DNA of 64,000 nucleotides. Origin: Candidatus Omnitrophota bacterium. Lineage in GTDB: Bacteria > Omnitrophota > Gorgyraeia > Pluralincolimonadales > CAZUZR01. The stretch is from positions 11,261 through 75,260 of the forward strand of contig JBDRDF010000032.1 of NCBI GenBank assembly GCA_043821025.1, in the 5' to 3' direction. Of this stretch, positions 2,471-21,335 are shown piece by piece. The position numbers and the translations under genes are program-made. The first letter of the stretch is position 1; each line of letters begins with the position of its first letter. The notes beneath the pieces are model-generated. The model was not told where the DNA came from, ran no database searches, and saw nothing but the letters and a program-made list of their open reading frames with translations.

Positions 2471-3187
2471 TTGAGAAGAAAGAAATATCGTATCATTTTT
2501 CTTTCTATTTTTATCCCTTTTTTGTTTTTGGGGATGAATAAAATTTTCGCAATTTCTAAAGGAGGAGAAAAGATGTTAGAAGGAATCGAATGGTTAGGCC
2601 ATGCGACGTTTAAATTGGCCAAGGGTGGCAAGGCAGTTTATATCGATCCGTGGAAGATAAGGTCGAAAGATACTGCCGATGTAATCTGTATCACCCATTC
2701 ACATTACGACCACCTGTCAGTTGAAGATATAAAGAAACTACAAGGAAAGGATACAGTTATAGTTGCCACCGCCGATTCAGCGAAGACGATCCCAGGAAAC
2801 GTAAAAATTGTAAAGCCCGGCGACAAGGTCGAGGTAAATGACATAAAAGTCGAGGCGGTTGCGGCGTATAATGTAAATAAACAATTTCACCCGAAGGCGA
2901 ATGGTTGGGTTGGGTATATAATAACGCTTCCGGACGGCACAAGATTTTATCATGCTGGCGATACAGATTACATTCCTGAAATGAAAGATGTAAAGACCGA
3001 TATCGCCGTATTTCCAGTTGGCGGGACTTATACTATGGATGCGCAAGAAGCCGCAAAAGCAGCCAATGCGATACGGCCGAAGTTAGCGATATCTATGCAT
3101 TGGGGAACGATAGTAGGAAGCGAAAGAGACGCCGAAACTTTTAAGAAAAACTGCCAAGTTGAGGTTGTGATTTTGGAACAGAGATAG
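2471..3187 (+). CDS. MBL-fold metallo-hydrolase (UlaG/beta-lactamase-fold family)
   Basis: It has the HxHxDH motif (ITHSHYDHL). An alternative start (ATG 2575) preceded by AAAGGAGGAG would give a 204-aa cytoplasmic form. The longer form would carry a signal peptide. Confidence 0.65.
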   Translation: MRRKKYRIIFLSIFIPFLFLGMNKIFAISKGGEKMLEGIEWLGHATFKLAKGGKAVYIDPWKIRSKDTADVICITHSHYDHLSVEDIKKLQGKDTVIVATADSAKTIPGNVKIVKPGDKVEVNDIKVEAVAAYNVNKQFHPKANGWVGYIITLPDGTRFYHAGDTDYIPEMKDVKTDIAVFPVGGTYTMDAQEAAKAANAIRPKLAISMHWGTIVGSERDAETFKKNCQVEVVILEQR

Positions 3188-3191
3188 GGCT

Positions 3192-3893
3192 ATGCCTAAA
3201 GAAAATATACACGAGGATAATATAGAAGAAAAAGCCAAATTAGAGGCAAGGGTTCGCCGTGAGGTGATGAACCTTTTTATTGAAGAAGCCAAATTAGAGG
3301 CAAGGGCGAAGGAGCAAAAGCAAAGGTTGCTTGAAGAGAAAGAGGAAAAATTAAAAAATAAGACGGCAAAATCAGAGGTCGCTTCTAAAAAAGAAGCGCA
3401 GATCATTAAGATCTCCCCAAAAGAAGAACAACTCGAATTGGATTTAGAAGCGCTTAAGGCTAAAGCGAAAATAGACGACAGGATAAAACGCGAAAAGCGA
3501 AAGGGAAAGAGGATAATTCAAGGGGCCTTCGTTTTGTGCGCTATAATTATTTTGACAACGATAGCGATTTTGAATTCCCCGAAGGAAGTGACTGCGCAAT
3601 ACGACTTAGTTAAAATAAAAGAGTGTCTGCAAAGATCGTCTTCCTATTACGGTCAATTTAAAGTTGAAGATGTAATATTATCTGGCGAGAATCCATCCGC
3701 GACTTTAAGCTTAGGATTTTCTCCAACGACAGAAAGCGATTTAAAAGATTTTGTCGAATCGCTAGTAAAAAGATATACCATGGCCCGTCCCGGAGAGAAG
3801 ATTGACCTTCTTTTAAAAAGAGACCAAAGGGTCTATGCAAAGGCAAGTTATATCCCCCGCACAAATACAATAGATATAGAACTTATGAAATAA
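3192..3893 (+). CDS. Hypothetical coiled-coil membrane protein
   Basis: It has an N-terminal K/E-rich coiled-coil that includes an internal DNA direct repeat (about 3232-3305). It has one TM helix (AFVLCAIIILTTIAIL) and a C-terminal globular part. Confidence 0.35.
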   Translation: MPKENIHEDNIEEKAKLEARVRREVMNLFIEEAKLEARAKEQKQRLLEEKEEKLKNKTAKSEVASKKEAQIIKISPKEEQLELDLEALKAKAKIDDRIKREKRKGKRIIQGAFVLCAIIILTTIAILNSPKEVTAQYDLVKIKECLQRSSSYYGQFKVEDVILSGENPSATLSLGFSPTTESDLKDFVESLVKRYTMARPGEKIDLLLKRDQRVYAKASYIPRTNTIDIELMK

Positions 3894-4936
3894 TGCCGCT
3901 CCTTATCGGATTAGTTTTCGATTTAAAGCCCGTAGTTAAATCGATTAAAAAGCCAAATGATTTCTTAGCGGAGTTCGATACCGAAGAGACGATATCCTCT
4001 ATAGAAAATGCTTTGGCTAGATGCGGTAGTAGCGTCCTTAAGATCGGCTCGGCTAAAAGTCTTCTTGAGGTACTGCCCCGACTTCAATGCGATATCATCT
4101 TCAATATAGCTGAAGGCGAAGATGGTAGGAATCGAGAGTCGCAGGTCCCCGCGATTTTAGAAGTGGTGGATATTCCATACGTCGGCTCGGATGCGTTAAC
4201 ATTGGCAATTTCGCTAGATAAGGTATTTGCTAAAAGGATATTCGCTTATCATAACATCCCCACCCCTCGTTACTTTGAATGCAAGGACGAACGTAATATA
4301 GTCGTGTCAAAAGGATTAAATTTCCCCCTCATCGTAAAACCGAGATATGAAGGTTCTGCAAAGGGAATTACGCCCGATTCTAAAGTTAGCAGTGATAGGG
4401 AGCTTAAAAGACAGGTCAAGCGTATCATTAAAATCTACGATCAACCTGCACTTGTTGAGGAGTTCATTAGCGACAGGGAATTTACCGTTGGGATAATCGG
4501 AAATGAAAATCCTTTGATCTTTCCAGTTGTGCAAAGGCATTTAGAAGCAAAGACAAATTTAAGCAGTCATATTTTTGAGAAGTGCGGATACGATAAGAGC
4601 CGTTTAAAGTATCAAGAGCTGTCCGAGATAGAATCGGATTTGGAGTTAGAGATTAAACGCTTGAGCCTTGAAGCATTCCGCGCCATTGAATGTAGGGATT
4701 TTGCAAGAGTCGATTTTCGGGTGGGCAGTTGTGCTTCGACGCAAGGAAATGAAAAAATTTATGTTTTAGAAATAAACCCTTTGCCATCTCTTGCAACGGA
4801 CGATTATTTCGCTTTATCTGCCGAATCCTTTGGCATGTCCTATGATGAGATGATAAATATGATTTTGGAGGCCGCCGTTAAGAGGTACGAATGTCTACAA
4901 AAGACGTATACTCATATCCAGAATATTGCGAGATAG
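3893..4936 (+). CDS. ATP-grasp ligase of the D-alanine--D-alanine ligase family
   Basis: The sequence resembles Ddl (GEDGRNRESQVPAILEVVDIPYVGSDALTLAISLDKVFAKRIF, LIVKP...GSAKGI, EEFISDREFTVGIIGN). Confidence 0.55.
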   Translation: MPLLIGLVFDLKPVVKSIKKPNDFLAEFDTEETISSIENALARCGSSVLKIGSAKSLLEVLPRLQCDIIFNIAEGEDGRNRESQVPAILEVVDIPYVGSDALTLAISLDKVFAKRIFAYHNIPTPRYFECKDERNIVVSKGLNFPLIVKPRYEGSAKGITPDSKVSSDRELKRQVKRIIKIYDQPALVEEFISDREFTVGIIGNENPLIFPVVQRHLEAKTNLSSHIFEKCGYDKSRLKYQELSEIESDLELEIKRLSLEAFRAIECRDFARVDFRVGSCASTQGNEKIYVLEINPLPSLATDDYFALSAESFGMSYDEMINMILEAAVKRYECLQKTYTHIQNIAR

Positions 4937-5679
4937 CGTATAACTGGGATAGGACCCCTGAATGCGATTTCATCGAGGAGTGCATCAGGCGATATTCATC
5001 AATTAGTGTCAATTCAATTCTGGACATCGCTTGTGGGACAGGCATCATCTTAAGGGAATTTGCAAGGCGAGGGTATAAAGCACTGGGTTTGGATAAATCC
5101 AGGGAGATGGTCGAATTCGTTAATAGAAAAGCAACGCTCGAAGGGCTCGACTTAAAATGCGTCCATTCGGATATGAGGAGTTTTCAGCTAGGCGATAAGT
5201 ACGGTTGTGTGATTTGCATGCTCGATTCATTTAGATATCTGTTGACCGACGATGATATATTATCACATTTTAGGTCGGTCGCCAAAGAGTTGAAAGTAGG
5301 CGGCCTTTATATATTAGATTTCTGGATGCCTAAAGATGAAAATGTAATTGAATGGGAAGAGGCACGTTGGGTTCAGCAAGATAAAGATATATCGATAGAT
5401 GCTACATATCGGCAGCTCGCCCATACGTTCAGTCCGAAAGATAAGATATTCAAGGATGAATTAATTTTTAGGATAAGGAGTCCAAAATTCAATTCCACGA
5501 TAAACGGGCGCACAAAGACAAGGCTTTTGTTTCTTAGCGAACTTAAGGAACTCGTCAGAAAATCGGAGCTTTTTAATTATATCGATAGATTTTATAATTT
5601 TGACTTTGACTTAAAAGAAGGTTATAATATTAAACCGATAAGGACGAACATAATATTGAGGAGAAAGGGGGAAGATTAA
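4891..5679 (+). CDS. Class I SAM-dependent methyltransferase
   Basis: It has the SAM motif (ILDIACGTGI) and an acidic loop (VICMLDSF). It overlaps the upstream ATP-grasp gene. Confidence 0.55.
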   Translation: MSTKDVYSYPEYCEIAYNWDRTPECDFIEECIRRYSSISVNSILDIACGTGIILREFARRGYKALGLDKSREMVEFVNRKATLEGLDLKCVHSDMRSFQLGDKYGCVICMLDSFRYLLTDDDILSHFRSVAKELKVGGLYILDFWMPKDENVIEWEEARWVQQDKDISIDATYRQLAHTFSPKDKIFKDELIFRIRSPKFNSTINGRTKTRLLFLSELKELVRKSELFNYIDRFYNFDFDLKEGYNIKPIRTNIILRRKGED

Positions 5680-7552: not shown

Positions 7553-8988
7553 TTTTTTCTGCCGACTTGTACCTTTTCAAATTTGGCGGGCGAGACGCCG
7601 TGTCCGACGTGCATAGTCTGCCCTGGTTCTCCTTTGCCGCAATTCGGAACGCCATGCAATTTCCAATATTGCGAATTTGCGATCCCGCTACAACTTGCCC
7701 AAAACTTAGGCGTTATGCCCGTATAGCAAGGATTTTTTAGGACCTGGCCAATTTTGCCGTTTTTGATCTCCCAAGCGATTTCGGTGCCGAACTGAAAATT
7801 AAGACGTAAATCGTCAATCGACCAACTTTTATTGGTCGAAAGTAATATTCCATCTTTTGTATCCGAGACTAACTCTTCCAGCGTTGCATCACCCGGTTCC
7901 AAATTGATATTCGTCATCCTAATCAGAGGCAGGGCGCTGTAACTAGCAGCCCTCATCGCGCCAGTAGATTTCGTTCCTAATCTGTATGCGGTTTCCCTAG
8001 AACTTAAATATCCGATGAACAAACCATCTTTTATAATCGGAACTTTTTGCGCAGGCACACCTTCGTCGTCAAAGCCGAAACTTCCCACACCGCCTTCACA
8101 AGTGGCATCAGCGGTTATATTGACCAATTTTGAACCGTATCTAAATTTTCCTAATTTTTCCGGCGTTAAGAAACTTGCGCCGGCAAAACTTACTTCATCG
8201 CCAAACGCCCTATCCAATTCGACGGGATGTCCGCAGGATTCGTGAATTTGGAGAGCGAGTTGAGATGTGTCCAAAATCACCGTTGTGATCTTTACGGGGC
8301 ATTCCTTCGCTCGCAGTAGGCTTATTACCTCATTTTTTACTTTTTCCGCGCCTCCAACTAAATCGAGTTGTTTTGCATATTCATATCCTCTTTGCGCGAT
8401 GTTGCTATGTGGAAGCGGATAGGACCTGCGTTGGACCTCACCATCTAATACAGCGATTGCTTCGACATAACCGCCGCTTTCTATAAATTCCTGCTCTAAC
8501 TCAGAACCTTCTGTTGATACGAAAAATTTATATGTCCTAAAGAAGTCGAGCGATGCTAAAGCCGTCTTTATATTCGGATGGGATTTTAAAACTTGGCATG
8601 CCCACATTATGTAATCCAATTTTTTCTGCATAGGGACTTCAAGGGGGTCTATTTCGTATTTAGATTTGAAAGAGGATTTAATCGGTTCATTTCCCGCCAA
8701 ATATACCCTGCTTTTATTAATAGAAGCGGTTGCCCCGGCGATGGCGATTGCACGTTCGGCGGTCCTTTTTACGTTCTCTTTTGAAATCTCCGCGCACGAC
8801 GAGAAGCCCCAACTGCCCCATTTTAAGACACGGACGGAGAATCCTTCGTCGGTCATAGTGGATATATTTTCGACTTGCAGATTTTTGACGATTAAGGATT
8901 CGTGGGTATGTCTTACAAGACGGACGTCGGCGTAATCAACGCCTTTCCGCTTTAAGTATTTTATGCCGTCTTTTAATATCTCTTTCAT
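7549..8988 (-). CDS. tldD: TldD family metallopeptidase
   Basis: It has the HExxxH-type motif (IHESCGHPVELD), a glycine-rich C-terminus and a TldD-like N-terminus. Confidence 0.75.
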   Translation of the reverse strand: MKEILKDGIKYLKRKGVDYADVRLVRHTHESLIVKNLQVENISTMTDEGFSVRVLKWGSWGFSSCAEISKENVKRTAERAIAIAGATASINKSRVYLAGNEPIKSSFKSKYEIDPLEVPMQKKLDYIMWACQVLKSHPNIKTALASLDFFRTYKFFVSTEGSELEQEFIESGGYVEAIAVLDGEVQRRSYPLPHSNIAQRGYEYAKQLDLVGGAEKVKNEVISLLRAKECPVKITTVILDTSQLALQIHESCGHPVELDRAFGDEVSFAGASFLTPEKLGKFRYGSKLVNITADATCEGGVGSFGFDDEGVPAQKVPIIKDGLFIGYLSSRETAYRLGTKSTGAMRAASYSALPLIRMTNINLEPGDATLEELVSDTKDGILLSTNKSWSIDDLRLNFQFGTEIAWEIKNGKIGQVLKNPCYTGITPKFWASCSGIANSQYWKLHGVPNCGKGEPGQTMHVGHGVSPAKFEKVQVGRKK

Positions 8989-9120
8989 AGTTAGTGCGAA
9001 TTCGCTTCGAGTTAAATATTATATCATCAATTTTACGTTTTGCAAATTTTATAGTCCGACGTAACTTAAGTAGAACGTTCGCTTTACTTGAAATATTTTA
9101 TCTGGTATAATTTGCGTAAA

Positions 9121-10557
9121 ATGAAACGGGATATAAAAGCGATACAAGAGAGATTAAACGAAGTACTCTTAAAGCTTCCGAAACCGGTAGTAAGGCAACT
9201 TTTCGATAAATTGAAGGAAGAGTCCTTAAAGCGTGGCATGGTGGTTTATAACGAGAAGGGAGAGCCCCGTATCGTAAATGTTCGCGTTCGCCCGTGGTTA
9301 ATAACAAAAGAACAAAAAAGGTTCTTCCATAGAGTTTGCTTGGATATGAAGGACGCACTTCAGAGGGTAGCGAACATATATTATAACGAGCCGAAGTCAA
9401 GAGAGATCCTTACCTTGACACCGCGGGAAGAGGAGTGGTTCTTCGATATATACAGAAGCGGCACTCAGGATCCTCAAACGGTATTTGACAGAATAGACGC
9501 CAACGCCATATTCTCCGGTTCTGACTGGAAAGACTCATTTACATTTATTGAGACGAATTCCGTCGGCGTCGGTGGGGTTTATTATATTCCTGCGGGGGCC
9601 AATATTATAGAAGATATCATACTTCCAGTTTTTCGCAACCGGGTCCGCGACATAGAGTTCGTAATGCAGGATGATATTCGCGAACTATTGTTTGAAACCA
9701 TAACCGAACACGCCCAGAAGATAGATCGGCTTCGCGCCAACGTGGCTTTTATCGAAGACCAACGCTGTCTCGACGGGACGGACGAATACGCCTTCGTCGC
9801 AAATTATTTGAGAAGCAAAGGCCTTTTGGCATTTGCAACTGACCCGAGGGAGCTTTCGCTTAGAAATGGCGAGGTTTATTTTAGGGATGCACCCATAGAT
9901 ATAATTTATAGGGACTGCTCAATAGATGAATTACACGAGATGGAAGACCAGGGGACGAAGGTGGACGTATTGAAAGAGGCATTTGCGAGAAATCAGGTCG
10001 TCTCTTCCATTGCGGGTGAATTCGACCATAAAAGTACATTGGAGATTTTTACCGATGATGAATATGCAAAATATTTTACTCCCGCACAAAATAGATTGTT
10101 CAAGAAACATGTAGTTTGGACGCGTTTAATCTGGGATAGAAAGACCAAGGGACCGAAGGGCGAAGATGTAGAACTCGCTAAATTCATCGAAAAGCACAAG
10201 GATAGCTTGGTTATAAAACCAAATCGAATGTATGGTGGTGAAGGGGTTATCTTAGGAAGATTTGCAAAGACCAGCGAGTGGAGAAGGGCAGCGGAAGAGG
10301 CGTTTTCCGCCAAAGGCGAATCTGCTTCAGGCGAGAAAGAAGGACCTACGCACGTTGTTCAGGAATATGCCGAGATAAGGGAGGAGAAATTTCCAGTTTT
10401 TTACGAAGACGGAACGGTTGCGATGGAAAAGAATTACGAGGTCTCTGGTTTTACATCATCCGATTCTGGGATTGCTTTCTTGGGCAGGTGTTCGATTGAG
10501 CCGGTGGTAAACATCTCCAGGAAAGGTGGTCTCATTCCTGTCGTAATGATAGAGTAA
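9121..10557 (+). CDS. Hypothetical protein, possibly a circularly permuted ATP-grasp (type 2)-like enzyme
   Basis: It is about 480 aa and has an SLVIKPNRMYGGEGVILG motif. TATAAT lies at 9106-9111 with no SD, so the transcript may be leaderless. The ORF-track start at 9088 (TTG) lies inside that promoter. Confidence 0.35.
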   Translation: MKRDIKAIQERLNEVLLKLPKPVVRQLFDKLKEESLKRGMVVYNEKGEPRIVNVRVRPWLITKEQKRFFHRVCLDMKDALQRVANIYYNEPKSREILTLTPREEEWFFDIYRSGTQDPQTVFDRIDANAIFSGSDWKDSFTFIETNSVGVGGVYYIPAGANIIEDIILPVFRNRVRDIEFVMQDDIRELLFETITEHAQKIDRLRANVAFIEDQRCLDGTDEYAFVANYLRSKGLLAFATDPRELSLRNGEVYFRDAPIDIIYRDCSIDELHEMEDQGTKVDVLKEAFARNQVVSSIAGEFDHKSTLEIFTDDEYAKYFTPAQNRLFKKHVVWTRLIWDRKTKGPKGEDVELAKFIEKHKDSLVIKPNRMYGGEGVILGRFAKTSEWRRAAEEAFSAKGESASGEKEGPTHVVQEYAEIREEKFPVFYEDGTVAMEKNYEVSGFTSSDSGIAFLGRCSIEPVVNISRKGGLIPVVMIE

Positions 10558-10635: not shown

Positions 10636-10663
10636 TTGACATTTTCTTAGAATTGGGTATAAT
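10636..10663 (+). promoter_or_regulatory. Near-consensus sigma70 promoter, TTGACA-16-TATAAT
   Basis: TTGACA is at 10636-10641 and TATAAT at 10658-10663. It is followed by a roughly 100-nt leader ahead of the GTG start at 10767. Confidence 0.55.
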
Positions 10664-10734
10664 TAGTTTCATACAGAAACAAAGTATAGGAGTGCTTATA
10701 TTTTTTGCAAACTTTGTTTCTTTATGAAACAAAG
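10663..10734 (+). promoter_or_regulatory. Two palindromic sites of type TTTGTTTC-N5-GAAACAAA in the leader (candidate operator or RNA hairpins)
   Basis: Site 1 (10663-10683, TTAGTTTCatacaGAAACAAA) overlaps the predicted +1. Site 2 (10712-10734, CTTTGTTTCtttatGAAACAAAG) is a perfect 9-5-9 inverted repeat. A third copy lies at 12691-12713. Confidence 0.4.
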
Positions 10735-10766: not shown

Positions 10767-11474
10767 GTGAAACTAGTGAGAAAAATTGCATTACTAATTG
10801 GGTTGGTAAGTCTTGTATTCTTAGGTCTAACGGCAACAGCGCAAGCTACTATTTGGACGGACAACTTTGATGATGGAGTAGCAGATGGTTGGACCGTAAG
10901 AAAAGGTACCTGGCTTGTCGATGCTGGACAGTATAAGTCTAACGCAGGAGAGAACTATTGGACCGCCTCAACGTTTGACGCAGCGGGTTCGTCCTTCACA
11001 ACAGGGTATGGAAAAACAGACTTTAAGAGGGACTATATCGGGACTGAAACATTAGAGGGAATCCACTTTGGATATGTTCCTAACTCAACCATGTGGTTTG
11101 CAGGCGTATATGAATACGCTCCTGAAAATGCACATGTGATCTTCATCAGGCCGTACACATGGACTGGAACTGACTGGTCACCATCGGCTTCTGGGACCAA
11201 TTTGCCAATCCCTGCTCTTACTGCCGGTAGTTGGTACAACTTATTGTTGGAGGTTTCGGATACGGAAGCGAAATTGACGCTTGGAGGTAATTCCGTTACT
11301 CGTACATTAGCAGGCGTACCAGCTGGGAACATTGGGCTTGGTTCAAGCGTCGGTTGGACATCCTTTGATAATTGGGAAGCAGGGAACCAGCCAATACCAG
11401 AACCGACAAGCCTTCTTTTGTTGGGCTCCGGTTTAATTGGTTTGTTAGCTTTTAGAAAGAAAAGCAAAAGTTAA
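10767..11474 (+). CDS. PEP-CTERM-anchored secreted protein with a concanavalin/LamG-like (DUF1080-like) domain
   Basis: A GTG start is preceded by AAAGGAGGGAGG, and a signal peptide is present. It has FDDGVADGWTVRKGTWLVDAG. The C-terminus is a canonical PEP-CTERM signal (PIPEPTSLLLLGSGLIGLLAFRKKSKS*). Confidence 0.65.
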   Translation: MKLVRKIALLIGLVSLVFLGLTATAQATIWTDNFDDGVADGWTVRKGTWLVDAGQYKSNAGENYWTASTFDAAGSSFTTGYGKTDFKRDYIGTETLEGIHFGYVPNSTMWFAGVYEYAPENAHVIFIRPYTWTGTDWSPSASGTNLPIPALTAGSWYNLLLEVSDTEAKLTLGGNSVTRTLAGVPAGNIGLGSSVGWTSFDNWEAGNQPIPEPTSLLLLGSGLIGLLAFRKKSKS

Positions 11475-11593
11475 AAAGTCGTTTTTGGTAACAAACAAGG
11501 GTTAAAAATAATCGGGAGATAGAGTTAATGGAGAAGCTCTTGCTGATTATAACGATGATTAACTTTATCTCCCGTTCCCTAAAGATGTAAGAA

Positions 11594-12658
11594 ATGCATA
11601 GTTTTAAATGTTATATATTTAATTTCATTTTTTTTATTATAACGCTGTCAGTAAGTTCAAACCCACTTGCGCAAGCCGATGGCTACGATAGAGCTATGTG
11701 GGTCTGGGAGCAAAGCACGCGAGACGCCCTCTATAGTCCTTCTCAAAATCAAGAGCTTCTTAATTTTTCTCAGACAAAAGACATCAAAACCTTATACCTT
11801 TACAGCGATTCATATCTGGGTATAAATGACATAATTGAACGCCCCGATTATTATCGTTACTTTATAAGTGAAGCTCATAGTCGGGGTATGCAGGTTCATG
11901 CGCTTCTCGGCTCTATGTATCTTCAGACCTGGGAATATATACTGCCGGAAAAAAGAGAAGATGCTCTTTCGATGGTGAGAAATGTCCTAGAATACAACCA
12001 AAATTCTTCGGCCTCAGAGAAATTTGATGGTTTTAATGTGGATATCGAACCCTATCTTTTGTCCGATTGGGGGGATAACCAACCTTATTATTCCGAACAG
12101 TATCTCGATGCCCTTTCAGCTCAAAAACAGCTCGTCATTAACTCTGGGCAAAATATCGAATATGGACCATGCATTCCGCGTTGGTATGATGAGGTCTCTT
12201 TAATCCAGAATATAACCTGGAACGGTGAAGTTAAGCCATTGTATCAACATTTGCAGGATATAGGTAGCTACGTAACCATAATGGATTATGTAAATGATGC
12301 GGATGGGATTGTAAATAACGCTTCAGATGAGCTTCAATACGCCGATAGTATAAATCGCAAGGTAGTCATAGGTGTAGAAACGCAAGACGTTATACCTTCT
12401 TGGACAACCTTCTACGGATTTAGCGAAGAAGAGATGGAGGCAGTGTTAAATGCTGCCGAAGGTAACTTGAAAAATTATACCTCGTACGATGGATTTGCAA
12501 TACACAGCTACGATTCTTATGCAAAGATGGCTGTAATCCCAGAACCCGGTAACATCATTTTGCTGGGATTAGGGTTAATTGGTTTGTTCGCTTTTAGAAG
12601 GAAAAGAAAAAGCATTAGTTACATTGACAAATTATATTTTTGTGGTATCTTAATATAA
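11594..12658 (+). CDS. PEP-CTERM-anchored secreted GH-A-clan-like TIM-barrel protein (GHL family paralog)
   Basis: A signal peptide is present. It has RAMWVWEQ... and a GFNVDIEPY (D-x-EP) motif. The C-terminus is VIPEPGNIILLGLGLIGLFAFRRKRKS. Confidence 0.6.
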   Translation: MHSFKCYIFNFIFFIITLSVSSNPLAQADGYDRAMWVWEQSTRDALYSPSQNQELLNFSQTKDIKTLYLYSDSYLGINDIIERPDYYRYFISEAHSRGMQVHALLGSMYLQTWEYILPEKREDALSMVRNVLEYNQNSSASEKFDGFNVDIEPYLLSDWGDNQPYYSEQYLDALSAQKQLVINSGQNIEYGPCIPRWYDEVSLIQNITWNGEVKPLYQHLQDIGSYVTIMDYVNDADGIVNNASDELQYADSINRKVVIGVETQDVIPSWTTFYGFSEEEMEAVLNAAEGNLKNYTSYDGFAIHSYDSYAKMAVIPEPGNIILLGLGLIGLFAFRRKRKSISYIDKLYFCGILI

Positions 12659-12690
12659 TAAGAGGAGGTAATAGAAATTTTTTTTGGCCA

Positions 12691-12713
12691 CTTTGTTTCA
12701 GATAGAAACGAAA
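12691..12713 (+). promoter_or_regulatory. Third copy of the TTTGTTTC-N5-GAAAC palindrome, immediately 5' of ATG 12714
   Basis: The sequence is CTTTGTTTCagataGAAACgAAA. Confidence 0.35.
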
Positions 12714-14984
12714 ATGAAGAAGACCTCTAAAACAATAGCATTATTAGTTGTTTTTATATTTATTTTATTCAATAGTTTACCCGCCTGTTTTGCAAGAGAG
12801 AAACAAATTACCCTGACCTTTTGGCAATTAAGCGCAAAAGAAGATTTTATGCGCTTAATTTTGGATGATTTTGAAAAAGAGAATCCCAATATAAAAGTTA
12901 ATATGCAAATTCTCACCTGGGATTATGGTTTTGATAAAATCGTAACTTCGATAGCAGCTGGAAATGCCCCTGATGTATGCGAATTGGGATCTACTTGGGT
13001 GCCAACGTTTTCTACCAGCGGGATATTGGTCGACTTGACCGACGATTTTAAAGATATAAAAGATAAATACTTATTCTGGGAATCTGTGAGTTATGAGGGC
13101 AAGCTATTCGGGGCTCCGTGGCTGGTAGGAACAAGGGCGTTATTTTATAACAAAGATTTATTTAAGCGTGCGGGCTTAGATCCGAATAAGCCCCCAAAGA
13201 CATGGCTTGATTTGTTGGATTATTCCAAAAAAATACACCAACCCGACAAAGGGATTTATGGATTTGGAATTTATGTTGGTGAGCCGTATGCTCCCTGGCA
13301 ACTCTTTCTCCCCTTCGCTTGGTCAAACGGTGCGGATGTCTTAAGCCCAGATTTTAAGACCTCCCTCATTACTTCGCCAGAATTTCAAGAGACGTTGGAA
13401 TTTTACAACATATTAAAGGCGTATTCAATTCATGATAGGCAGGCCCAAATAAATCAGGCATTTGCCGAAGGAAAGGTTGGCATACAAATCTCCGGCGCTT
13501 GGAACCTAATCCTCATTTCCCAAAATAACCCGGAGTTAAATTACGGCGTCGCAATAGTTCCTCGACCCGACCTAGATATAGGAAGACCCGTTTCATTTGC
13601 TGGCGGTGAAGTTTTTGTGATATTTAAACAGACCAGACAAAAGGAAGCAGCCGTTAAGCTAATGAAATTTTTATTAAGGGAAGAGAATATTATGAAGGTG
13701 GTTAAATCCCAGAAGAACGTCTTGCCATCCAGTAAGGAGAGCATCCGCCACCCCTATTTTAAAGAGCAGCCCAATCAAAGAATTTTCTTCGAACAGATGA
13801 TGAGCTCGGTGGCGGCTCCAGAACATCCAAGTTGGCCAAAGATAGAAGAGCATTTAACGAGGGCAATAGAGGAAGTCGTCCTTTTAGATGTGTCTCCAAA
13901 GGAAGCTCTGCAAAAAGCGGATTTAAAAATCAATGACATTTTGAAAAGCAAAAAGATAAAAGCGGGTCTTAGCGATAAAATCTTATCTTGGATTTTCATT
14001 GTATTTATCTTTTCAGCCGGGTTAATAATTTATTTATGGCAAAGGTTCAAGAAGAGAGAAATGGTGCCAGCAACTAAGTTAAGATTTAAGAAAATTGCCA
14101 CAGGTTATCTGTTCATCTTTCCCTGGCTTCTGCTGTTTTTTATTTTTTCGCTTTTTCCATTAATCCATTCGATAATAATCAGTTTTTCCGACTATAATCT
14201 TCTTGAGGCCAGGTTTTCTTTTATAGGTTTTAAAAATTATTTGGATGTTATGTTCGATCCTCATTTTCATAAAGCCCTTTGGCATACCATTTTCTTCGCC
14301 GTAGGGACCGTACCCTTTACGACGACTATCGCTTTATTCTGCGCTCTGTTAATAAATCGAAAATTACCTTTTAAACAACTATATCAGGCAGGCCTATTTT
14401 TGCCGGTTGTTACCTCGGTGATTGTAATTGCCAGTATATTTAGTTATGTCTATTCTCCCGATGGCTTATTGAACATCATCATCGATAGGACAGGGACATT
14501 CTTAAGTAAGTTTGGTATCCATGGCATACAGAGTCCAAAACCGAGCTGGTTATTAAATACGAAGTTAGCCTTGCCCAGCATAATGGCTATGTGCGTCTGG
14601 TCGAGCTTCGGCTATTACACCATTTTGTTTTTGGCCGGGCTTCAAGCCATTTCTCAGGAGATGTACGAAGCAAGTGCTATAGACGGCGCTAATTGGTGGG
14701 GCCAGTTTCGCTGGGTTATTTTGCCACAACTTAAGCCCATAATGTTATTTATCATCGTAATTAATAGCATCCGCTCCTTTCAGGTATTCCCGGAGATATT
14801 TGCAATGACCCAAGGAGGGCCGTTGGGCTCGACGACCACCGTCGTCTATCATCTTTATGAGATGGGGTTCCATAGATTTGAAATGGGAATGGCTTCGGCC
14901 GTTGGCTATATTTTATTTATTGTCATAATGTGCCTTACATTAGCCCAGCTTAAGATATTTAAATTTGGGGAAAGCGTAGGATAA
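12714..14984 (+). CDS. Fusion of an ABC sugar-transporter substrate-binding protein (family 1) with a MalF/UgpA-type permease
   Basis: The N-terminal roughly 430 aa form an extracellular solute-binding domain with a signal peptide. An extra TM helix follows (SWIFIVFIFSAGLIIYLW), then a 6-TM permease with an EAA loop (LAGLQAISQEMYEASAIDGANWWGQFRWVILPQ). It is a single uninterrupted ORF. The track's longer TTG start is at 12684. Confidence 0.65.
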   Translation: MKKTSKTIALLVVFIFILFNSLPACFAREKQITLTFWQLSAKEDFMRLILDDFEKENPNIKVNMQILTWDYGFDKIVTSIAAGNAPDVCELGSTWVPTFSTSGILVDLTDDFKDIKDKYLFWESVSYEGKLFGAPWLVGTRALFYNKDLFKRAGLDPNKPPKTWLDLLDYSKKIHQPDKGIYGFGIYVGEPYAPWQLFLPFAWSNGADVLSPDFKTSLITSPEFQETLEFYNILKAYSIHDRQAQINQAFAEGKVGIQISGAWNLILISQNNPELNYGVAIVPRPDLDIGRPVSFAGGEVFVIFKQTRQKEAAVKLMKFLLREENIMKVVKSQKNVLPSSKESIRHPYFKEQPNQRIFFEQMMSSVAAPEHPSWPKIEEHLTRAIEEVVLLDVSPKEALQKADLKINDILKSKKIKAGLSDKILSWIFIVFIFSAGLIIYLWQRFKKREMVPATKLRFKKIATGYLFIFPWLLLFFIFSLFPLIHSIIISFSDYNLLEARFSFIGFKNYLDVMFDPHFHKALWHTIFFAVGTVPFTTTIALFCALLINRKLPFKQLYQAGLFLPVVTSVIVIASIFSYVYSPDGLLNIIIDRTGTFLSKFGIHGIQSPKPSWLLNTKLALPSIMAMCVWSSFGYYTILFLAGLQAISQEMYEASAIDGANWWGQFRWVILPQLKPIMLFIIVINSIRSFQVFPEIFAMTQGGPLGSTTTVVYHLYEMGFHRFEMGMASAVGYILFIVIMCLTLAQLKIFKFGESVG

Positions 14985-15001
14985 TCTAAAGGGATATTTT
15001 T

Positions 15002-16192
15002 ATGAGAGAAAAGAGAAAGCTTAATATCGCAATAACCATTTTATTATTGATCATCGTGGTTTTTACTTTATTCCCACTTTTTTTAATGTTCAGCACCTCT
15101 TTAAAAGCCACAGGCACATTGGCCAAGAAAGTAACTCAAATTGTTATCGCGGATTTTAATAGGGAAGAAAATGGATATAAAAAGATAGAATTCACCGCAG
15201 ATGAGTCAGGCGATTTTATATGGAACGCGCATATCGACCAAGATATACGAAAGTTCAGTAAATTAGAATTCCTTTATAAGGCGGAAGGGGATTATAAATT
15301 TAAAATAGGTTTAATAGATACGCTGGGAAAAAGCAGTTTTTTAGAGATATCTAAATACGCGATAGAAAAAGAAACCGAGTGGCAGAAGGTAACGATACCC
15401 ATAAACGACTTTGATTTAAAAACTATTGACCCAAGGATGGTGGAAGGACTTGCTATCGTCTCCGATGCGCCCCGTTCTGGCACTATTTATCTGGACGAAA
15501 TTGTTTTGTGTATTAAAAAGGTCACTCTTATAAATTACGTCGATGTTTTAGTCAGCGGGCCATTCGGCCGTTATTTCTTTAATAGTTTTTTGATTTCTAT
15601 TTTGGTTACGTTTGGGAATATTTTGTTCTGTTCAATGGTGGCCTATTCCTTCGCAAGAAAGGAATTTCCAGGGAAGCACGCATTATTTCTTTTGATAATC
15701 GGCAGCATAATGATCCCACCTCAAGTCTTAATGGTCCCGATGTTTATACTGATGAAAAACATCCATTGGTTAAATACTTATTGGGCACTCATCATTCCAG
15801 CCTTAACTGAGCCCTTTAATATATTTTTGTTGCGTCAATATATTAGCGGCCTGCCAAAAGATTTGGAAGATGCGGCTATAATAGATGGCGCAAATGATTG
15901 GCAGGTGCTTTTCAAGGTTATTATGCCTTTGTCAAGGCCAGCGTTGGCAATAGTGGGCATTAATACTTTTATGGGAAGCTGGAATACATTTTTGTATCCA
16001 TTTTTGTTGACCAATACGACCGAGATGCGGACATTGCCGGTTGGCCTCGCTCTCTATAAGAGTTTATACAGCGTTGACTGGACTCATTTGATGGCGGCTT
16101 CCAGCATAACGGCCATACCTGTTATTATTGTATTTTTGTGCTTTCAACGACATATCATCGCTGGTCTTACCGCAGGAGCTCTTAAAGGATAG
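15002..16192 (+). CDS. MalG/UgpE-type ABC permease with a CBM11/CIA30-like domain inserted in the first extracytoplasmic loop
   Basis: After TM1, about 130 aa match the CBM-like family (EFLYKAEGDYKFKIGLIDT...EWQKVTIPINDF...GTIYLDEIVL). A permease core follows with an EAA loop (LLRQYISGLPKDLEDAAIIDGANDWQVLFKVIMPL). Confidence 0.65.
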   Translation: MREKRKLNIAITILLLIIVVFTLFPLFLMFSTSLKATGTLAKKVTQIVIADFNREENGYKKIEFTADESGDFIWNAHIDQDIRKFSKLEFLYKAEGDYKFKIGLIDTLGKSSFLEISKYAIEKETEWQKVTIPINDFDLKTIDPRMVEGLAIVSDAPRSGTIYLDEIVLCIKKVTLINYVDVLVSGPFGRYFFNSFLISILVTFGNILFCSMVAYSFARKEFPGKHALFLLIIGSIMIPPQVLMVPMFILMKNIHWLNTYWALIIPALTEPFNIFLLRQYISGLPKDLEDAAIIDGANDWQVLFKVIMPLSRPALAIVGINTFMGSWNTFLYPFLLTNTTEMRTLPVGLALYKSLYSVDWTHLMAASSITAIPVIIVFLCFQRHIIAGLTAGALKG

Positions 16193-16202
16193 CGCAATTA
16201 AA

Positions 16203-17216
16203 ATGGAAACTGGGGTAAGTTATTTCGCAAACAGGGATTTAAGGCACGTAAAAAGCGATTTAGTTGCAATGAGAAAAAATCATTGCAGTTACGTCGTACA
16301 TACATTTTCGGAAATAGACCTTCAATATTATAAAGAGAACATGCGTCAAATTGTAGCTGCAAGCGTTGAGGTTGGTTTGGAAGTGAGGATTGACCCGTGG
16401 GGAGTGGCAGGGCTATTTGGAGGGGAGGCCTATTCATATTTCGTTGCAGAGAAATTAGAGACAAGACAGATCGTATCCGATGGCAGAAGTGTGCCGCTTG
16501 CGTGCCCAAACAATCCTCAAGCTCGTCTTTTTTTGAGGCGTTGGATGGACGAAGTCATTGATTTAGGCGCCAAAATTATTTTCTGGGATGAGCCGCACTT
16601 TTATGAACCCCATTGGGTAGGCGATAAGGATGAGGAGCTTTGGGGATGTAAATGCGGTTGCTGTCAGAATTCTTTTAAAGAACGTTTCAATCACAAGATG
16701 CCCGATACTTTAACCGACGAAATAGAAGATTTTAAACAGCAGAGTTTAATCCTTTTCTTAAAGGAGTTATGTGACTATTCGAGTTCAAAGGGATTGAAAA
16801 ATAGCGTTTGTCTGTTGCCGAATGCGAAACATTTAGAGAGCGGTTTTTGGGATGAAATAGCGGAGATAAAGTCGCTCGATAATATTGGGACCGATCCTTA
16901 CTGGGTTGAGATTAAAAAAACCGAAAGGAATTTTAATCTGAACGCTTATATTAGAAAATTTTGTAAGAAAATAAATCAACTGTCGAAATCCCATAAGAAA
17001 GAAGGGCATATCTGGATTCAGAATTTTTCTATTCCATCTGGATGGGAAGGCGATATTAAGACCGTTGCGGACATCGCTTATGAGGAAGGCATTAGAGATA
17101 TAGCTGCTTGGAGCTATTACGGTACAAGTGGTATGTCAAGCAAGGCATGCGATAATCCCGAATTAGTTTGGGATGTTTTAGGAAAATCTTATAAGGAGCT
17201 ATTGCGTAAAGAGTAG
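16203..17216 (+). CDS. Cytoplasmic GH-A-clan-like TIM-barrel protein (putative glycosidase, paralog of the GHL family)
   Basis: It has no signal peptide. It has IIFWDEPHFYEP (D-EP) and an RIDPWG motif. The start is taken at ATG 16203, 10 nt after the permease stop. Confidence 0.35.
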   Translation: METGVSYFANRDLRHVKSDLVAMRKNHCSYVVHTFSEIDLQYYKENMRQIVAASVEVGLEVRIDPWGVAGLFGGEAYSYFVAEKLETRQIVSDGRSVPLACPNNPQARLFLRRWMDEVIDLGAKIIFWDEPHFYEPHWVGDKDEELWGCKCGCCQNSFKERFNHKMPDTLTDEIEDFKQQSLILFLKELCDYSSSKGLKNSVCLLPNAKHLESGFWDEIAEIKSLDNIGTDPYWVEIKKTERNFNLNAYIRKFCKKINQLSKSHKKEGHIWIQNFSIPSGWEGDIKTVADIAYEEGIRDIAAWSYYGTSGMSSKACDNPELVWDVLGKSYKELLRKE

Positions 17217-17220: not shown

Positions 17221-19596
17221 ATGAAATACGGATATTTCAGCGAAGACGGTAAGGAATATATCATCGACAGTCCGCTTACCCCGCGGCCGTGGTTTAACTA
17301 CCTTTTTAATAAAAAATATCACGCCCTTGTATCGCAAACAGGCGGCGGATTTAGTTATTATAAGGACCCCAAGGTTAACAGGATATTGCGCTACGATCAC
17401 ATCCATACCGACCGTCCGGGTAGATATCTATTTCTGCGCGATGAAACTACGAACGAATTCTGGTCAGCAAATTGGCAGCCGTTGAAATCCAAATTGGATT
17501 TTTGGCAATGCCGTCACGGTTTAGGCTATAGCGTAATCGCCTCTAAATATAAAGGAATAGGGACGGAACTGACCTATTTTGTGAATTTACAAGAGCCAGT
17601 CGAATTCTGGCTCATCAAAGTAAAAAATGATTCTAAGCGCAAGAAGATCTTAAAGATTTTTCCATTTGCGGAATTGGTTTGCGGTAATATCGAATTAGAG
17701 AATAATTATAGGAATATACTTTGTTTATATAATGAGGGGTATTTCGATAAGAAATTAAACGGCATAGTTTCTTTTAAACACCCGTTTAAAAAAGAACATA
17801 AGGTAACTTATACCTTTTTTGGTATGGATGAAAAGATAGATGCTTTCGATTGCCACAAAGGAAAGTACTTCGGCCGTTACAACGATAATCAAAATTCCGA
17901 AACCTTAAAGCGTGGCAAGTTGGGTAATAACAATGTTCGCGGCGAAGATATGGTAGCTGTCTTGGAGAAAAAATTAATTTTAAAGCCAGGTCAAAAAAAA
18001 GAGATCGTGGTTATTTTGGGCGTTGCCGAAAGCGAGCGCGATTTAAAAAGAATAGCGAAATTTAAAAATTTGAAATTTGCTAAAAATTCTTTAAAGGCAA
18101 ATAAGCTATATTGGGAAAAGGCATTGGATAAGATCATAGTTAAGACGCCGGATCCAGATTTCGATCTAATGGTGAATATCTGGGGCAGATATCAACTATA
18201 TGCCATTACTTGCTGGCGCGGCACTTCCCAATATCACGGCGGAGAAGGTGGATTGGGCTATCGCGATACCGCTCAGGACATTGAGGGGCTTTTGGCTTTG
18301 GATTTAGATTTGGCAAGAGAAAAATTAGACAAGATACTTTATTATCAATATAACTCTGGCCATGCTGTCTCCGGTTTTTCGGATGTAGAGGGTTCTTGGG
18401 ATAAGCACACAGGCAGTATTGTAATAGGAAAGGCGGATGTGGCTATTTGGTTGGTTTTTACAGTGATCTCATATCTTAAAGAGACAGGGGATTTCAAGTT
18501 CTTAAAAAAGGAATATGGCTTTCACGATGGCGGAAAAACCACTGTATATGAACATATACTAAGAGCGATAAGATATTTATATAGTCAGCGCGGAAGACAC
18601 GGCCTTCCGTTTATTAAAAAGGCTGATTGGAATGACGCTTATGACTCGGTCGGAATAAAAGGAAAAGGAGAAAGCGTCTGGCTTGGGATGGCGTTGGTTA
18701 GAGCCTGTCGGCAAATAGAATCGTTGGCTAATTTTATTGGCGATAGAAAAATAGCCGAGGAGATGAAAGAGAAATCCCGTCTCTTAACCAAAATCATTAA
18801 TAGAGCGGGATGGGATGGAAATTGGTACTTAGCAGCTTTTAACGACGAAGGATTTAAGATAGGGTCAAATAAAAACAAAGAGGGCAAAGTGCCTCTTAAT
18901 AGCCAAACCTGGGCGATTTTGAGCGAACTAGTTCCGCGGGAGAGACTTAAAAAAATCCTAAATAAGATCGACAATTATTTAAATACCGAATATGGCCCGG
19001 TATTATTTTTGCCGTCCTATACAAAATTTAATCCCGGAATCGGAAGGGTTACTGCATTCGCCGCCGGAACGAAGGAAAATGCAGCTGTCTTTTCTCATGC
19101 CTGCGCTTTTAAAATTGTGGCGGATTGTATATTAGGTCGGGGCGATAAAGCCCACGAGACATTTAAAAAATTATGTCCTATGAGTAAAGCTAAGAGCGAT
19201 CACGATAAATATAAAGCCGAGCCATACGTATGGGCAGAATATGTTATCGGGCCAGGAAATAAGGACAATTTCGGCGAAGGTGCATTTACATGGAATACCG
19301 GCACAGCACCATGGATGTTTATGGCTGCCTGCGAATGGATATTAGGGGCGAGGAGGGATTTCGGAGGGCTGCTAATCGACCCGTGCATACCAAAGCACTG
19401 GAGGAGATGTTCTATAAAAAGGCCTTTTAGAGGAGCGACCTATTTGGTCGAAATCGAGAACCCTAAAGGGGTGGAGCATGGGGTTGATAAGCTTATAGTC
19501 GACGGCGTCGAAGTAAAAGGAAATTTAATCAAGCCTCACGGCGACGGAAGAACTCATAACGTTAAGGTGATAATGGGCAATGGTAGGGATAGGTAA
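17221..19596 (+). CDS. GH94-family glycoside phosphorylase (cellobiose/cellodextrin/beta-glucan phosphorylase-like)
   Basis: It is 791 aa with an (alpha/alpha)6-barrel-type sequence (GGEGGLGYRDTAQDIEG...KAEPYVWAEYVIGPGN...LLIDPCIPKHW). The domain order is typical of cellobiose phosphorylases. Confidence 0.65.
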   Translation: MKYGYFSEDGKEYIIDSPLTPRPWFNYLFNKKYHALVSQTGGGFSYYKDPKVNRILRYDHIHTDRPGRYLFLRDETTNEFWSANWQPLKSKLDFWQCRHGLGYSVIASKYKGIGTELTYFVNLQEPVEFWLIKVKNDSKRKKILKIFPFAELVCGNIELENNYRNILCLYNEGYFDKKLNGIVSFKHPFKKEHKVTYTFFGMDEKIDAFDCHKGKYFGRYNDNQNSETLKRGKLGNNNVRGEDMVAVLEKKLILKPGQKKEIVVILGVAESERDLKRIAKFKNLKFAKNSLKANKLYWEKALDKIIVKTPDPDFDLMVNIWGRYQLYAITCWRGTSQYHGGEGGLGYRDTAQDIEGLLALDLDLAREKLDKILYYQYNSGHAVSGFSDVEGSWDKHTGSIVIGKADVAIWLVFTVISYLKETGDFKFLKKEYGFHDGGKTTVYEHILRAIRYLYSQRGRHGLPFIKKADWNDAYDSVGIKGKGESVWLGMALVRACRQIESLANFIGDRKIAEEMKEKSRLLTKIINRAGWDGNWYLAAFNDEGFKIGSNKNKEGKVPLNSQTWAILSELVPRERLKKILNKIDNYLNTEYGPVLFLPSYTKFNPGIGRVTAFAAGTKENAAVFSHACAFKIVADCILGRGDKAHETFKKLCPMSKAKSDHDKYKAEPYVWAEYVIGPGNKDNFGEGAFTWNTGTAPWMFMAACEWILGARRDFGGLLIDPCIPKHWRRCSIKRPFRGATYLVEIENPKGVEHGVDKLIVDGVEVKGNLIKPHGDGRTHNVKVIMGNGRDR

Positions 19597-20698
19597 AAAT
19601 TTTTTAAAGGAAAGTAATCGAAGACTTATCTTAAAGGTCATCTATGAGAATTCACCTATATCGAGGACTCAGATAGTCAGGCATACGAATTTGAGTAAGG
19701 TAACCGTAACGAGGATCGTCAACGAATTGATTAAAAGCGGCCTTGTATTTGAAGGCGAGCAAACCGCTTCCAGCGGAGGCAGGCCTCAGGTTCTTATAAG
19801 GTTGATTCCCGACGCAAGGTATGCTATCGGTGCTGATATTGGAATTTCAGATGTTAAAATCGGTGTGTGCGATTTAAGGTGCAATGTACTTTTTAAGTTA
19901 GAAAAAAAGATCACGCCAAAGATCGAAAGTAACAAATTGGCCGAACTTTTATTTAATTCAGTAAAAGAACTGATAAGATCATCAAATGTTCATGCCGATA
20001 AGGTACTGGGAGTGGGAATCTCTATGCCCGGGGTTATAGACGCTGATAAAGGTATAGTCAAATCATCATTTATTTTAAGCGAACGAAATGTACCATTGGA
20101 GGGAATTTTGGAAAATAAACTTAAGTTGAACGTCGTTGTCGATAGAGACGCTAACGCAGGATTATTTTACGAAAGATTTATGGGTAAAGGCAAGGATATC
20201 GATGATATACTATATATTTATACCCGTAAGAATGAAGCGGGAGAAATGGGAGTCGGCTGCAGTTTCCTTCTTGATAGTCAGATATATCGCGGGGCGGATT
20301 ATTGCGCGGGAGAGATCGGTTTAGCCCACAGCGACGATGAAAAAGAAGCGATTTTTGAGCCATTTTCTTCTTATGAATCAATCCCGTTTCGCAACGCTAT
20401 GCAAGCCGCAAAAAATGGAGATGAACAAGCAAATAAAATTTTATTCGAGGTAGGTGAAAAGATCGGACAGGGAATTTCATTTTTGGTCAATTTGCTAAAT
20501 CCGAAATTGGTGATCGTAGGCGGAGATTTTTCCATGGCGGGAGAGCCGTTTTTTAAATCGCTGGCAAATTCTCTTGAGAGGCATATTTTTGATTTTTCAA
20601 CTAAAGATATAAAGCTCGAATCCTCTTCAGCCGACGAATATTCCGGTATAAAAGCAGCTGCCTTTATGGTCATAGCTAAAACAGTGGGATATAAATGA
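19580..20698 (+). CDS. ROK-family transcriptional regulator (N-terminal wHTH plus sugar-kinase-like domain)
   Basis: It has an N-terminal HTH (ISRTQIVRHTNLSKVTVTRIVNELIKSGLV) and ROK motifs (GVGISMPGVID, GCSFLLDSQIYRGADYCAGEIG). Confidence 0.7.
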   Translation: MVGIGKNFLKESNRRLILKVIYENSPISRTQIVRHTNLSKVTVTRIVNELIKSGLVFEGEQTASSGGRPQVLIRLIPDARYAIGADIGISDVKIGVCDLRCNVLFKLEKKITPKIESNKLAELLFNSVKELIRSSNVHADKVLGVGISMPGVIDADKGIVKSSFILSERNVPLEGILENKLKLNVVVDRDANAGLFYERFMGKGKDIDDILYIYTRKNEAGEMGVGCSFLLDSQIYRGADYCAGEIGLAHSDDEKEAIFEPFSSYESIPFRNAMQAAKNGDEQANKILFEVGEKIGQGISFLVNLLNPKLVIVGGDFSMAGEPFFKSLANSLERHIFDFSTKDIKLESSSADEYSGIKAAAFMVIAKTVGYK

Positions 20699-20714: not shown

Positions 20715-21335
20715 ATGAAAAGGAATATTAAATTTTGTTGTGCGCTATTAGTCTGCATGTTTTTTGTATTTAGCGCTTTTAAAACAGCTGAAGCAGAGGT
20801 AAAGTTGATAGATGATTTTAAAGGACAGGAAAACCTTTTAGGTGGGAAAAGCAATGTGTACCAGCAGGAACCTTCCAGAGCCTACCTTAGTAGAAAGGCA
20901 GTAGAACGAGATGGAAAGAGCGAGATGGTGCTTATGATCAAATACGATAAGAAGAACAAGGGTGGCTCTTATGACTCCGGAGGCTGGTGCGGCTATTATA
21001 CCTTGCTCAAGACAGATAGCACATATTTTGACATTTCAAAGTATAAAAATCTTACATTGTGGGTTAAAGGCGCCCAAGGAGATGAAAATTTTAAAGTGGG
21101 ATTAGCGGATAGGCATTGGGAGCAAGCAGATGATTCAGTCAAATCCGACCAGATAGGCGCCTATCTTAAAGCAGGGAAAATAACCACTGATTGGCAGAAG
21201 GCGACCATACCCCTAAATCTATTCTTAATCGATTTTACCGAAATGTCTTCGCTCGCTATATGTTTTGAAAGCGAGTGTTTTCCTGACGGCAGTGGCATGG
21301 GCACAGTTTATATTGACGATATAGCCTTAGAGTAA
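20715..21335 (+). CDS. Secreted CBM11/CIA30-like domain protein (paralog)
   Basis: An SD sequence (AAAGGAGGAG) and a signal peptide are present. It has GGWCGYYTLLK, LTLWVKGAQGDENFKVGLADRHW, DWQKATIPLNLF and GTVYIDDIALE. Confidence 0.55.
   Translation: MKRNIKFCCALLVCMFFVFSAFKTAEAEVKLIDDFKGQENLLGGKSNVYQQEPSRAYLSRKAVERDGKSEMVLMIKYDKKNKGGSYDSGGWCGYYTLLKTDSTYFDISKYKNLTLWVKGAQGDENFKVGLADRHWEQADDSVKSDQIGAYLKAGKITTDWQKATIPLNLFLIDFTEMSSLAICFESECFPDGSGMGTVYIDDIALE

Follow-up and report, generated by a model that had tools for sequence, protein, structure and literature searches.

What do two adjacent genes, each encoding a protein with a bacterial sorting signal near its end, contribute to the glycan locus at whose head they lie? 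The question is raised by a stretch of 64,000 nucleotides from a Candidatus Omnitrophota bacterium (NCBI GenBank assembly GCA_043821025.1, contig JBDRDF010000032.1, positions 11,261 to 75,260 of the forward strand), the whole of which is called the window here and to which all positions refer unless another contig is named. In the window, open reading frames (ORFs) 1 and 2 encode proteins with PEP-CTERM tails, the signals of the exosortase system. Our results make it probable that the two proteins are cargo of such a system in a diderm member of the Omnitrophota, and that they serve glycan capture together with the uptake operon downstream. The sorting signal itself is not new, since NCBI already names both products "PEP-CTERM sorting domain-containing protein" (locus-tag prefix ABH847); as the signal is moreover routine, the finding adds little in the form in which the initial annotation of this DNA gave it. 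What modest value there is lies in the cargo, in two uncharacterised families outside Pfam and NCBIfam.

Sorting signals and cargo domains of the pair

ORF1 (positions 10767-11474, forward strand; MFH1779071.1) encodes 235 amino acids, comprising a signal peptide (residues 1-27), a jelly roll of the concanavalin-like, CBM66-like type and a PEP-CTERM tail (nucleotides 11394-11468). The likelier start is a GTG at 10776 that is compatible with a ribosome-binding site; it gives a protein of 232 amino acids, a form that is present in other assemblies. ORF2 (11594-12658, forward strand; MFH1779072.1) encodes 354 amino acids, with a signal peptide (residues 1-28), a (β/α)8 glycosidase-like barrel (about residues 31-313), the PEP-CTERM signal (nucleotides 12536-12610) and an extra tail of 15 residues (12611-12655). 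Both signal peptides, judged by inspection of the sequence, are of the Sec type; in each, a basic n-region and a hydrophobic core precede the cleavage motif AQA.

The initial annotation had proposed a search with the TIGR02595 hidden Markov model (HMM) as a check on the tails. This model of 24 positions, the curated cutoff of which is 16 bits, scores 23.3 bits for ORF1 (residues 210-234) and 26.5 bits for ORF2 (residues 315-339), with per-protein E-values of 7.7e-5 and 6.9e-6. PF07589 is likewise exceeded by both proteins (29.1 bits for ORF1 and 25.4 bits for ORF2, gathering score 20.7). The more specific NCBIfam PEP-CTERM subfamilies (PepA, THxN, XDP1, EDSAP-1 and others) all remain far below cutoff for either protein, and their matches are essentially confined to the C-terminal sorting region. 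ORF1 closes with IPEP-TSLLLLGSGLIGLLAF-RKKSKS, one residue past the HMM match. In ORF2 the corresponding tail, IPEP-GNIILLGLGLIGLFAF-RRKRKS, is followed by 15 further residues, ISYIDKLYFCGILI, before the stop codon. The claim that both proteins end with canonical PEP-CTERM signals thus holds for the signals, but not for the end of ORF2, which had been placed at the KS of the basic cluster.

The tails are also conserved. The [IV]PEP tail is kept in all nine of the closest ORF2 relatives (46-92% identity), and of the 11 small proteins (158-242 amino acids) that top the list of the ORF1 family, 10 have a [VI]PEP tail. The ORF1 tail of the relative L002 has diverged in its DNA, while the PEP-CTERM motif is preserved there. 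Further PEP-CTERM proteins are found on related contigs, two on L001, one on L005 and two on L007. A six-frame scan of the window with a regular expression gave no such motif besides those of ORF1 and ORF2. The two tails are genuine PEP-CTERM signals.

What is carried by these signals? The AlphaFold model of ORF1, with a predicted local distance difference test (pLDDT) score of 85, is a concanavalin-like jelly roll (a β-sandwich), which bears out the lectin-like fold proposed initially. In size (about 180 amino acids) it resembles CBM66, the module of the Bacillus subtilis levanase SacC (PDB 4b1m), and the jelly rolls of the DUF1080 / 3-keto-disaccharide-hydrolase-like type, although the identity is only 14% and neither Pfam nor NCBIfam gives any family for ORF1 except PEP-CTERM at E-values up to 1, the CBM66/DUF1080 model (PF06439) being unmatched. 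Unlike CBM66, ORF1 is not attached to an enzyme but free-standing with a sorting tail, and its family is small, with three matches in a word-indexed search and 34 in a full HMMER search of 1.84 billion cluster representatives; a metagenome scan with a second alignment of the family added no contig beyond one already known. The modelled fold suggests that ORF1 is a small carbohydrate-binding module of the CBM66/DUF1080-like type, and that its family is a small lectin family, the members of which almost always carry PEP-CTERM tails.

The AlphaFold2 model of ORF2 is a (β/α)8 barrel (pLDDT 88.8). In the family alignment Asp150 and Glu152, located in the sequence FDGFNVDIEPY just past β4, Tyr232 of an MDY motif past β6 and Glu262 of a GVET motif at the end of β7 are invariant, and His304 on β8 is nearly so. 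These five are candidate catalytic residues. Two aspects of the barrel point towards GH18, a family of glycoside hydrolases. First, the stretch FDGFNVDIE (residues 144-152) after β4 resembles the GH18 active-site signature (PROSITE PS01095), which is of the DxxDxDxE type, and the MDY motif (residues 230-232) at β6 recalls the aromatic/Asp motif that GH18 has there. Second, Foldseek with the ORF2 model ranks the Cwp19 domain (GHL10, PDB 5oq2) first, followed mostly by GH18 chitinases and endo-β-N-acetylglucosaminidases. However, the identity of ORF2 to Cwp19 and GH18 is 12-16%, and ORF2 is not counted as a GH18 member, because the threshold of the GH18 model PF00704 is not reached: ORF2 itself has no match, and of 27 family members four match below threshold, the best with 28.1 bits against a gathering score of 29.6 and the others with 13.8-20.5 bits. 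In contrast to GH18, there is in addition to the Glu after β4 an invariant Glu at the end of β7, which recalls clan GH-A (the 4/7 superfamily), where the catalytic Glu after β4 usually occurs as Asn-Glu. The initial annotation had called ORF2 a GH-A-like barrel, and of this description the glycoside-hydrolase-like TIM barrel stands, whereas the GH-A label is doubtful, because the motifs FDGFNVDIE and MDY are GH18-like and because of the Foldseek ranking. As modelled, ORF2 appears to be an unclassified glycosidase-like barrel related to Cwp19 (GHL10) and GH18, and is not securely placed in clan GH-A.

One relative with a solved structure, PDB 10yv, is reached with a profile of the ORF2 family (275 amino acids, E 2.8e-20); its deposited name is "Putative GH97 from Cellulomonas fimi". 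It is a true sequence relative, in which the DxE, GxET and HxY motifs align with those of the family, but unlike ORF2 it has no signal tail. No paper was found in a search of the literature on this entry. Its GH97 label has no other support, as no member of the ORF2 family resembles the Pfam GH97 models. The family, in turn, is widespread: 39 homologs were retrieved by a word-indexed search, and relatives encoded in Massilia, Thermomonas, Stenotrophomonas, Rhodanobacter, Paenibacillus, Nonomuraea, Elusimicrobia and Nitrospirota, at least 168 in all, came from a scan of a genome collection, with no Omnitrophota locus among the matches listed. The window itself encodes a paralog (25392-26882, forward strand; 496 amino acids, 32% identity, E 7e-40), which has a signal peptide and an insertion of about 75 residues before β8 and lacks the PEP-CTERM tail. 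This suggests a division of labour between a tagged and an untagged form of the enzyme.

Shared operator, gene context and the glycan locus

Does the pair belong to the genes that follow it? A promoter-like site of the σ70 type lies upstream of ORF1 on the forward strand (10636-10663; TTGACA-16-TATAAT, 12 of 12 consensus matches), and both hexamers are conserved in L002. Its -10 element is overlapped and followed by two operator-like palindromes of 23 bp, CTTTGTTTC-N5-GAAACAAAG, at 10662-10684 and 10712-10734, and a third copy is located near the start of the transporter gene that follows the pair (12691-12713; all three on the forward strand). Three matches in the window stand against 0.06 expected by chance. 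A second promoter-like site (12624-12651, forward strand; TTGACA-16-TATCTT with a TG extension) lies ahead of the transporter gene inside the 3' tail of ORF2; it is conserved in L002, as is the third palindrome. The extra 15 residues of ORF2, the codons of which overlap this site, are also conserved in L002, with two amino-acid changes. As far as the sequence can indicate, the palindrome is likely the operator of the ROK-family regulator encoded further downstream (19580-20698), to which it would bind.

Between ORF1 and ORF2 there is a hairpin (11513-11574, forward strand) with a stem of 17 bp, a loop of 28 nucleotides and no U-tract (ΔG -32.7 kcal/mol, z -3.74), the stem of which is identical in L002. 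It could be an element of processing, stability or attenuation that sets the ratio of ORF1 to ORF2 expression; a search of the window with Rfam gave no RNA family at gathering score. Directly 5' of the ORF2 start codon, L002 has a tandem duplication of 14 bp (AAAGATGTAAGAAA; about 1060-1090 of that contig, alignment columns 1028-1041), which is not present in the window.

Members of the two families are neighbours in the window, on L002 (95% DNA identity) and on L007. On the last of these contigs the pair is in reverse order (39-64% protein identity). NagA and NagB are in its vicinity there, as is the fusion of a solute-binding protein with a permease known from the window, which on L007 has 749 amino acids and directly adjoins the pair (7838-10087). 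The description of the pair as the head of a glycan locus is therefore supported, because it recurs beside the same transporter fusion in a distant relative and because it shares the palindrome with the downstream operon of transporter, GH94 and ROK genes. Just downstream of the pair on L007 there is also an 809-amino-acid protein (2549-4978) with a hydrophobic pseudopilin-like N-terminus, a weak T2SS-K match at residues 199-219 and a Laminin_G_3 (concanavalin-like) domain.

Elsewhere, on L011-L090 (for example L087, 6279-9956, and L021, 3956-9932), the surroundings of the ORF2 family vary. In Paenibacillus and actinomycetes it is found among genes for ATP-binding cassette (ABC) sugar uptake, GH20 and NagB-like proteins. 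In Proteobacteria and Elusimicrobia the gene follows one for a membrane protein of the Sulfatase family (PF00884) of about 800 amino acids, which itself carries a domain homologous to the ORF2 family and clusters with the family by BLAST; genes for a TPR/YaiO outer-membrane barrel and a HEAT-repeat protein are nearby. This second context looks like a module for the modification and export of exopolysaccharide (EPS).

The genes downstream of the pair in the window can be read as an uptake and phosphorolysis pathway. The ABC sugar transporter (12684-16192, forward strand) consists of a solute-binding protein (PF01547/PF13416) fused in one ORF to a permease (PF00528; 12684-14984) and of a second permease (15002-16192), and there is no gene for its ATPase in the locus. 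An ORF of 362 amino acids (16128-17216) has no PDB, Pfam or NCBIfam relative, and the same is true of the 489-amino-acid ORF (9088-10557) that precedes ORF1. Genes of about 490 amino acids without a Pfam family lie 5' of ORF1 and of its homolog on L001, and were considered as a conserved pair; they are unrelated (BLASTP E 1.4). A disaccharide phosphorylase assigned to GH94 by profile match follows (17221-19596, forward strand), which scores 490 bits as a cellobiose phosphorylase and 441-453 bits as a chitobiose phosphorylase, although such whole-sequence scores do not separate the two. Next are the ROK-family regulator with its helix-turn-helix domain (19580-20698, forward strand), the best ROK match of which is NagC, below cutoff, and four CBM30/CBM11/CBM9-like proteins (20715-25528, forward strand), which have hydrophobic, signal-peptide-like N-termini and no PEP-CTERM tail; two of them are above and two below the Pfam threshold for CBM30. 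Beyond the ORF2 paralog, two archaeal-type GlmM/PGM mutases (TIGR03990, 483 and 528 bits against a cutoff of 439) and a PHO4 phosphate transporter, full-length at 29614-30588, occupy 26893-30588 on the forward strand. Mutases and phosphate transporter fit a phosphorolytic pathway. With regard to the substrate, NagA and NagB on L007 point to N-acetylglucosamine (GlcNAc), and so do the GlmM-like mutases, the regulator with its likeness to NagC and the GH18-like motifs of ORF2.

Sorting, glycan capture and the alternatives

How could the pair act? The window encodes a TolC-like outer-membrane efflux protein (46850-48124), an adaptor of the HlyD type and a resistance-nodulation-division (RND) pump of the CusA/AcrB type; the host is taken to be diderm because of the TolC-like protein and the pump. 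In such a cell ORF1 and ORF2 would be exported by Sec and temporarily retained in the inner membrane through their C-terminal helix and basic cluster, until an exosortase cleaves near the PEP motif and the proteins pass to the cell surface or the EPS layer. The strong promoter would drive the pair, under repression through the palindrome that is shared with the next operon, probably by the ROK regulator of the locus. On the surface ORF1 would bind and ORF2 would cut an extracellular β-linked glycan of the gluco- or N-acetylglucosamine type; the secreted, untagged paralog would trim the fragments, the transporter with its fused binding protein would import them, and after phosphorolysis by GH94 in the cytoplasm the two mutases would channel the products into metabolism.

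Several points weigh against this reading. Among the 58 ORFs of at least 150 amino acids in the window, Pfam gave no match to exosortase (PF09721), and an exosortase HMM run with --max against the six frames found nothing. This HMM was built from an alignment of three annotated, plasmid-borne exosortases that had been located by tblastn against plasmids with a pseudo-consensus. A homology search with the exosortase profile gave no Omnitrophota name in the best 120 of 528 matches, and those of the NCBI-sourced matches that were listed carry the names of Acidobacteria or Desulfovibrio, or none. Nor was an exosortase seen in the Omnitrophota-like loci inspected (about 130 kb). Only two PEP-CTERM proteins are visible in 64 kb, whereas the genomes surveyed by Haft et al. 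(2006; PMC1569441) have a median of eight and those with two instances or fewer were regarded as uninformative. The ORF2 signal is not strictly C-terminal, as 15 residues lie beyond the basic cluster, although a short cytoplasmic extension past the anchor would be of no consequence if the tail is cleaved off. As to function, the neighbourhoods of the ORF2 family on L003 and L004 are not sugar loci, no published activity was found for any member of either family, and two features, the GH94 enzyme being slightly nearer to cellobiose phosphorylase and the presence of CBM30/11/9-like neighbours, point to a β-glucan as substrate.

The alternative that survives best, though we consider it unlikely, is that the pair serves the cell's own EPS: ORF2 would trim or remodel a self-made, hexosamine-containing EPS to which ORF1 binds, and nutrients would not be captured at all. 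The association of PEP-CTERM proteins with EPS is established (PMC1569441), and the EPS-like module of PF00884, TPR/YaiO and HEAT genes beside the ORF2 family in Proteobacteria, Elusimicrobia and related loci could be read in the same sense. Yet what accompanies the pair in the window and on L007 is an uptake transporter with catabolic genes (GH94, mutases, NagA/NagB), and not glycosyltransferases or export genes, the operator is common to the pair and the uptake operon, and the family members of Paenibacillus and the actinomycetes lie in loci of ABC, GH20 and NagB-like uptake genes.

Somewhat less probable still is that the tails are plain anchors in the inner membrane of an organism whose small genome has no exosortase, so that both proteins are tethered facing the periplasm, beside the transporter. 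The missing exosortase in the window and in the related loci, the position of the ORF2 signal and the literature would all be in keeping with this, since a search of open-access full texts turned up no relevant paper in which exosortase or PEP-CTERM is linked to Omnitrophota (Omnitrophica). However, a single-copy exosortase gene is expected to be missed when only about 130 kb of Omnitrophota-like DNA are inspected. Moreover, an anchor does not need the PEP motif, and yet this motif is kept across relatives of 36-92% identity while the surrounding residues drift, and PEP-CTERM proteins recur on several Omnitrophota contigs, in one case with a cohesin module. In the founding study, finally, the co-occurrence of EpsH and PEP-CTERM was perfect (Haft et al. 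2006; PMC1569441). Because of this co-occurrence, the retention of the motif and its recurrence on other contigs, we infer that an exosortase is encoded elsewhere in the genome. As for mere chance, by which a short, low-information model of 24 positions with modest E-values would have hit ordinary hydrophobic C-termini, the fact that orthologs retain the motif in effect refutes it, and two independent curated models above threshold for both proteins, the exactly C-terminal match in ORF1, the two signal peptides and the absence of any further match in six frames of 64 kb likewise speak against it.

The contig with the cohesin module also carries the ORF1 homolog P0041. On this contig, L001, a protein with Big_7 and Dockerin_1 domains adjoins one of 223 amino acids that combines a Cohesin domain (29.7 bits) with a PEP-CTERM tail (24.4 bits), all above the Pfam thresholds (12379-14553). 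This cohesin-dockerin pair is apparently anchored by the exosortase route.

With the known PEP-CTERM/exosortase system (EpsH, Xrt; TIGR02595, PF07589; PMC1569441) the pair shares the signal peptide, the [IV]PEP motif, the Gly-rich hydrophobic helix and the Arg/Lys cluster, together with a diderm host, scores above cutoff, more than one tagged protein and a cargo of otherwise unknown families. It differs in that the partner exosortase was not observed, in that ORF2 continues past the basic cluster, and in that the cargo lies in a catabolic locus for sugar uptake and not in one for EPS biosynthesis. The proposed outline of the locus, a surface binder and a surface endo-enzyme that are co-regulated with an importer and intracellular enzymes, is that of the Sus-like polysaccharide utilization loci of Bacteroidota and of the cellulosome with its cohesin-dockerin display, of which L001, with its dockerin protein beside a cohesin on a PEP-CTERM anchor, offers a counterpart. 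This likeness is one of analogy only: in contrast to the Sus-like loci, the window locus lacks SusC/SusD, lipoprotein anchors and a TonB-dependent transporter, anchoring being assigned to PEP-CTERM and uptake to an ABC transporter.

A wider and much more tentative proposal, which is rather improbable as a whole, would be that ultra-small Omnitrophota use the exosortase route generally for harvesting glycans at their surface, with a lectin that stands alone, a hydrolase of the GH18/Cwp19-like type and, in relatives, dockerin-bearing proteins docked on a cohesin scaffold. ORF2 would then represent a new glycoside hydrolase family that cuts GlcNAc polymers, such as chitin, EPS of the poly-N-acetylglucosamine type or even the wall of a host or prey cell, and its products would enter the phosphorolytic GH94 pathway. 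If so, a diderm candidate phylum would possess a PEP-CTERM-based functional analogue of the Sus-like loci and of cellulosomes.

Independently of that proposal, a conserved and co-regulated pair recurs beside a phosphorolytic sugar-uptake operon, and one of its two families, a widespread one of GH18/Cwp19-like barrels, includes a deposited structure and no described activity. With its activity established, ORF2 could define a new glycoside hydrolase family and would provide a concrete case in which enzymes, and not low-complexity matrix proteins, take the exosortase route, in a candidate phylum the lifestyle of which, free-living or host-dependent, is debated.

Further features of the window

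Carbohydrate-related genes are also present beyond the locus. At the edge of the window (11-628) there is a second GH94 enzyme, represented by its C-terminal part. At 1840-2433 a small CBM11-like protein is encoded, the N-terminus of which resembles a signal peptide, and at 56276-57694 a GH16 enzyme of the laminarinase type with a C-terminal F5/8 type C domain. After a phosphoadenosine phosphosulfate (PAPS) reductase gene, an ORF at 31756-32382 covers only the first 142 of the 350 positions of the PHO4 profile, and may be a truncated duplicate.

Three unusual gene fusions are also encoded in the window. Porphobilinogen deaminase is joined to a low-molecular-weight phosphatase (34185-35243), a ThiS-like domain to a pyridoxal phosphate-dependent (PALP) enzyme (40800-41939), and a BioD-like (AAA_26) domain to a class-III aminotransferase of the BioA type (61432-63549).

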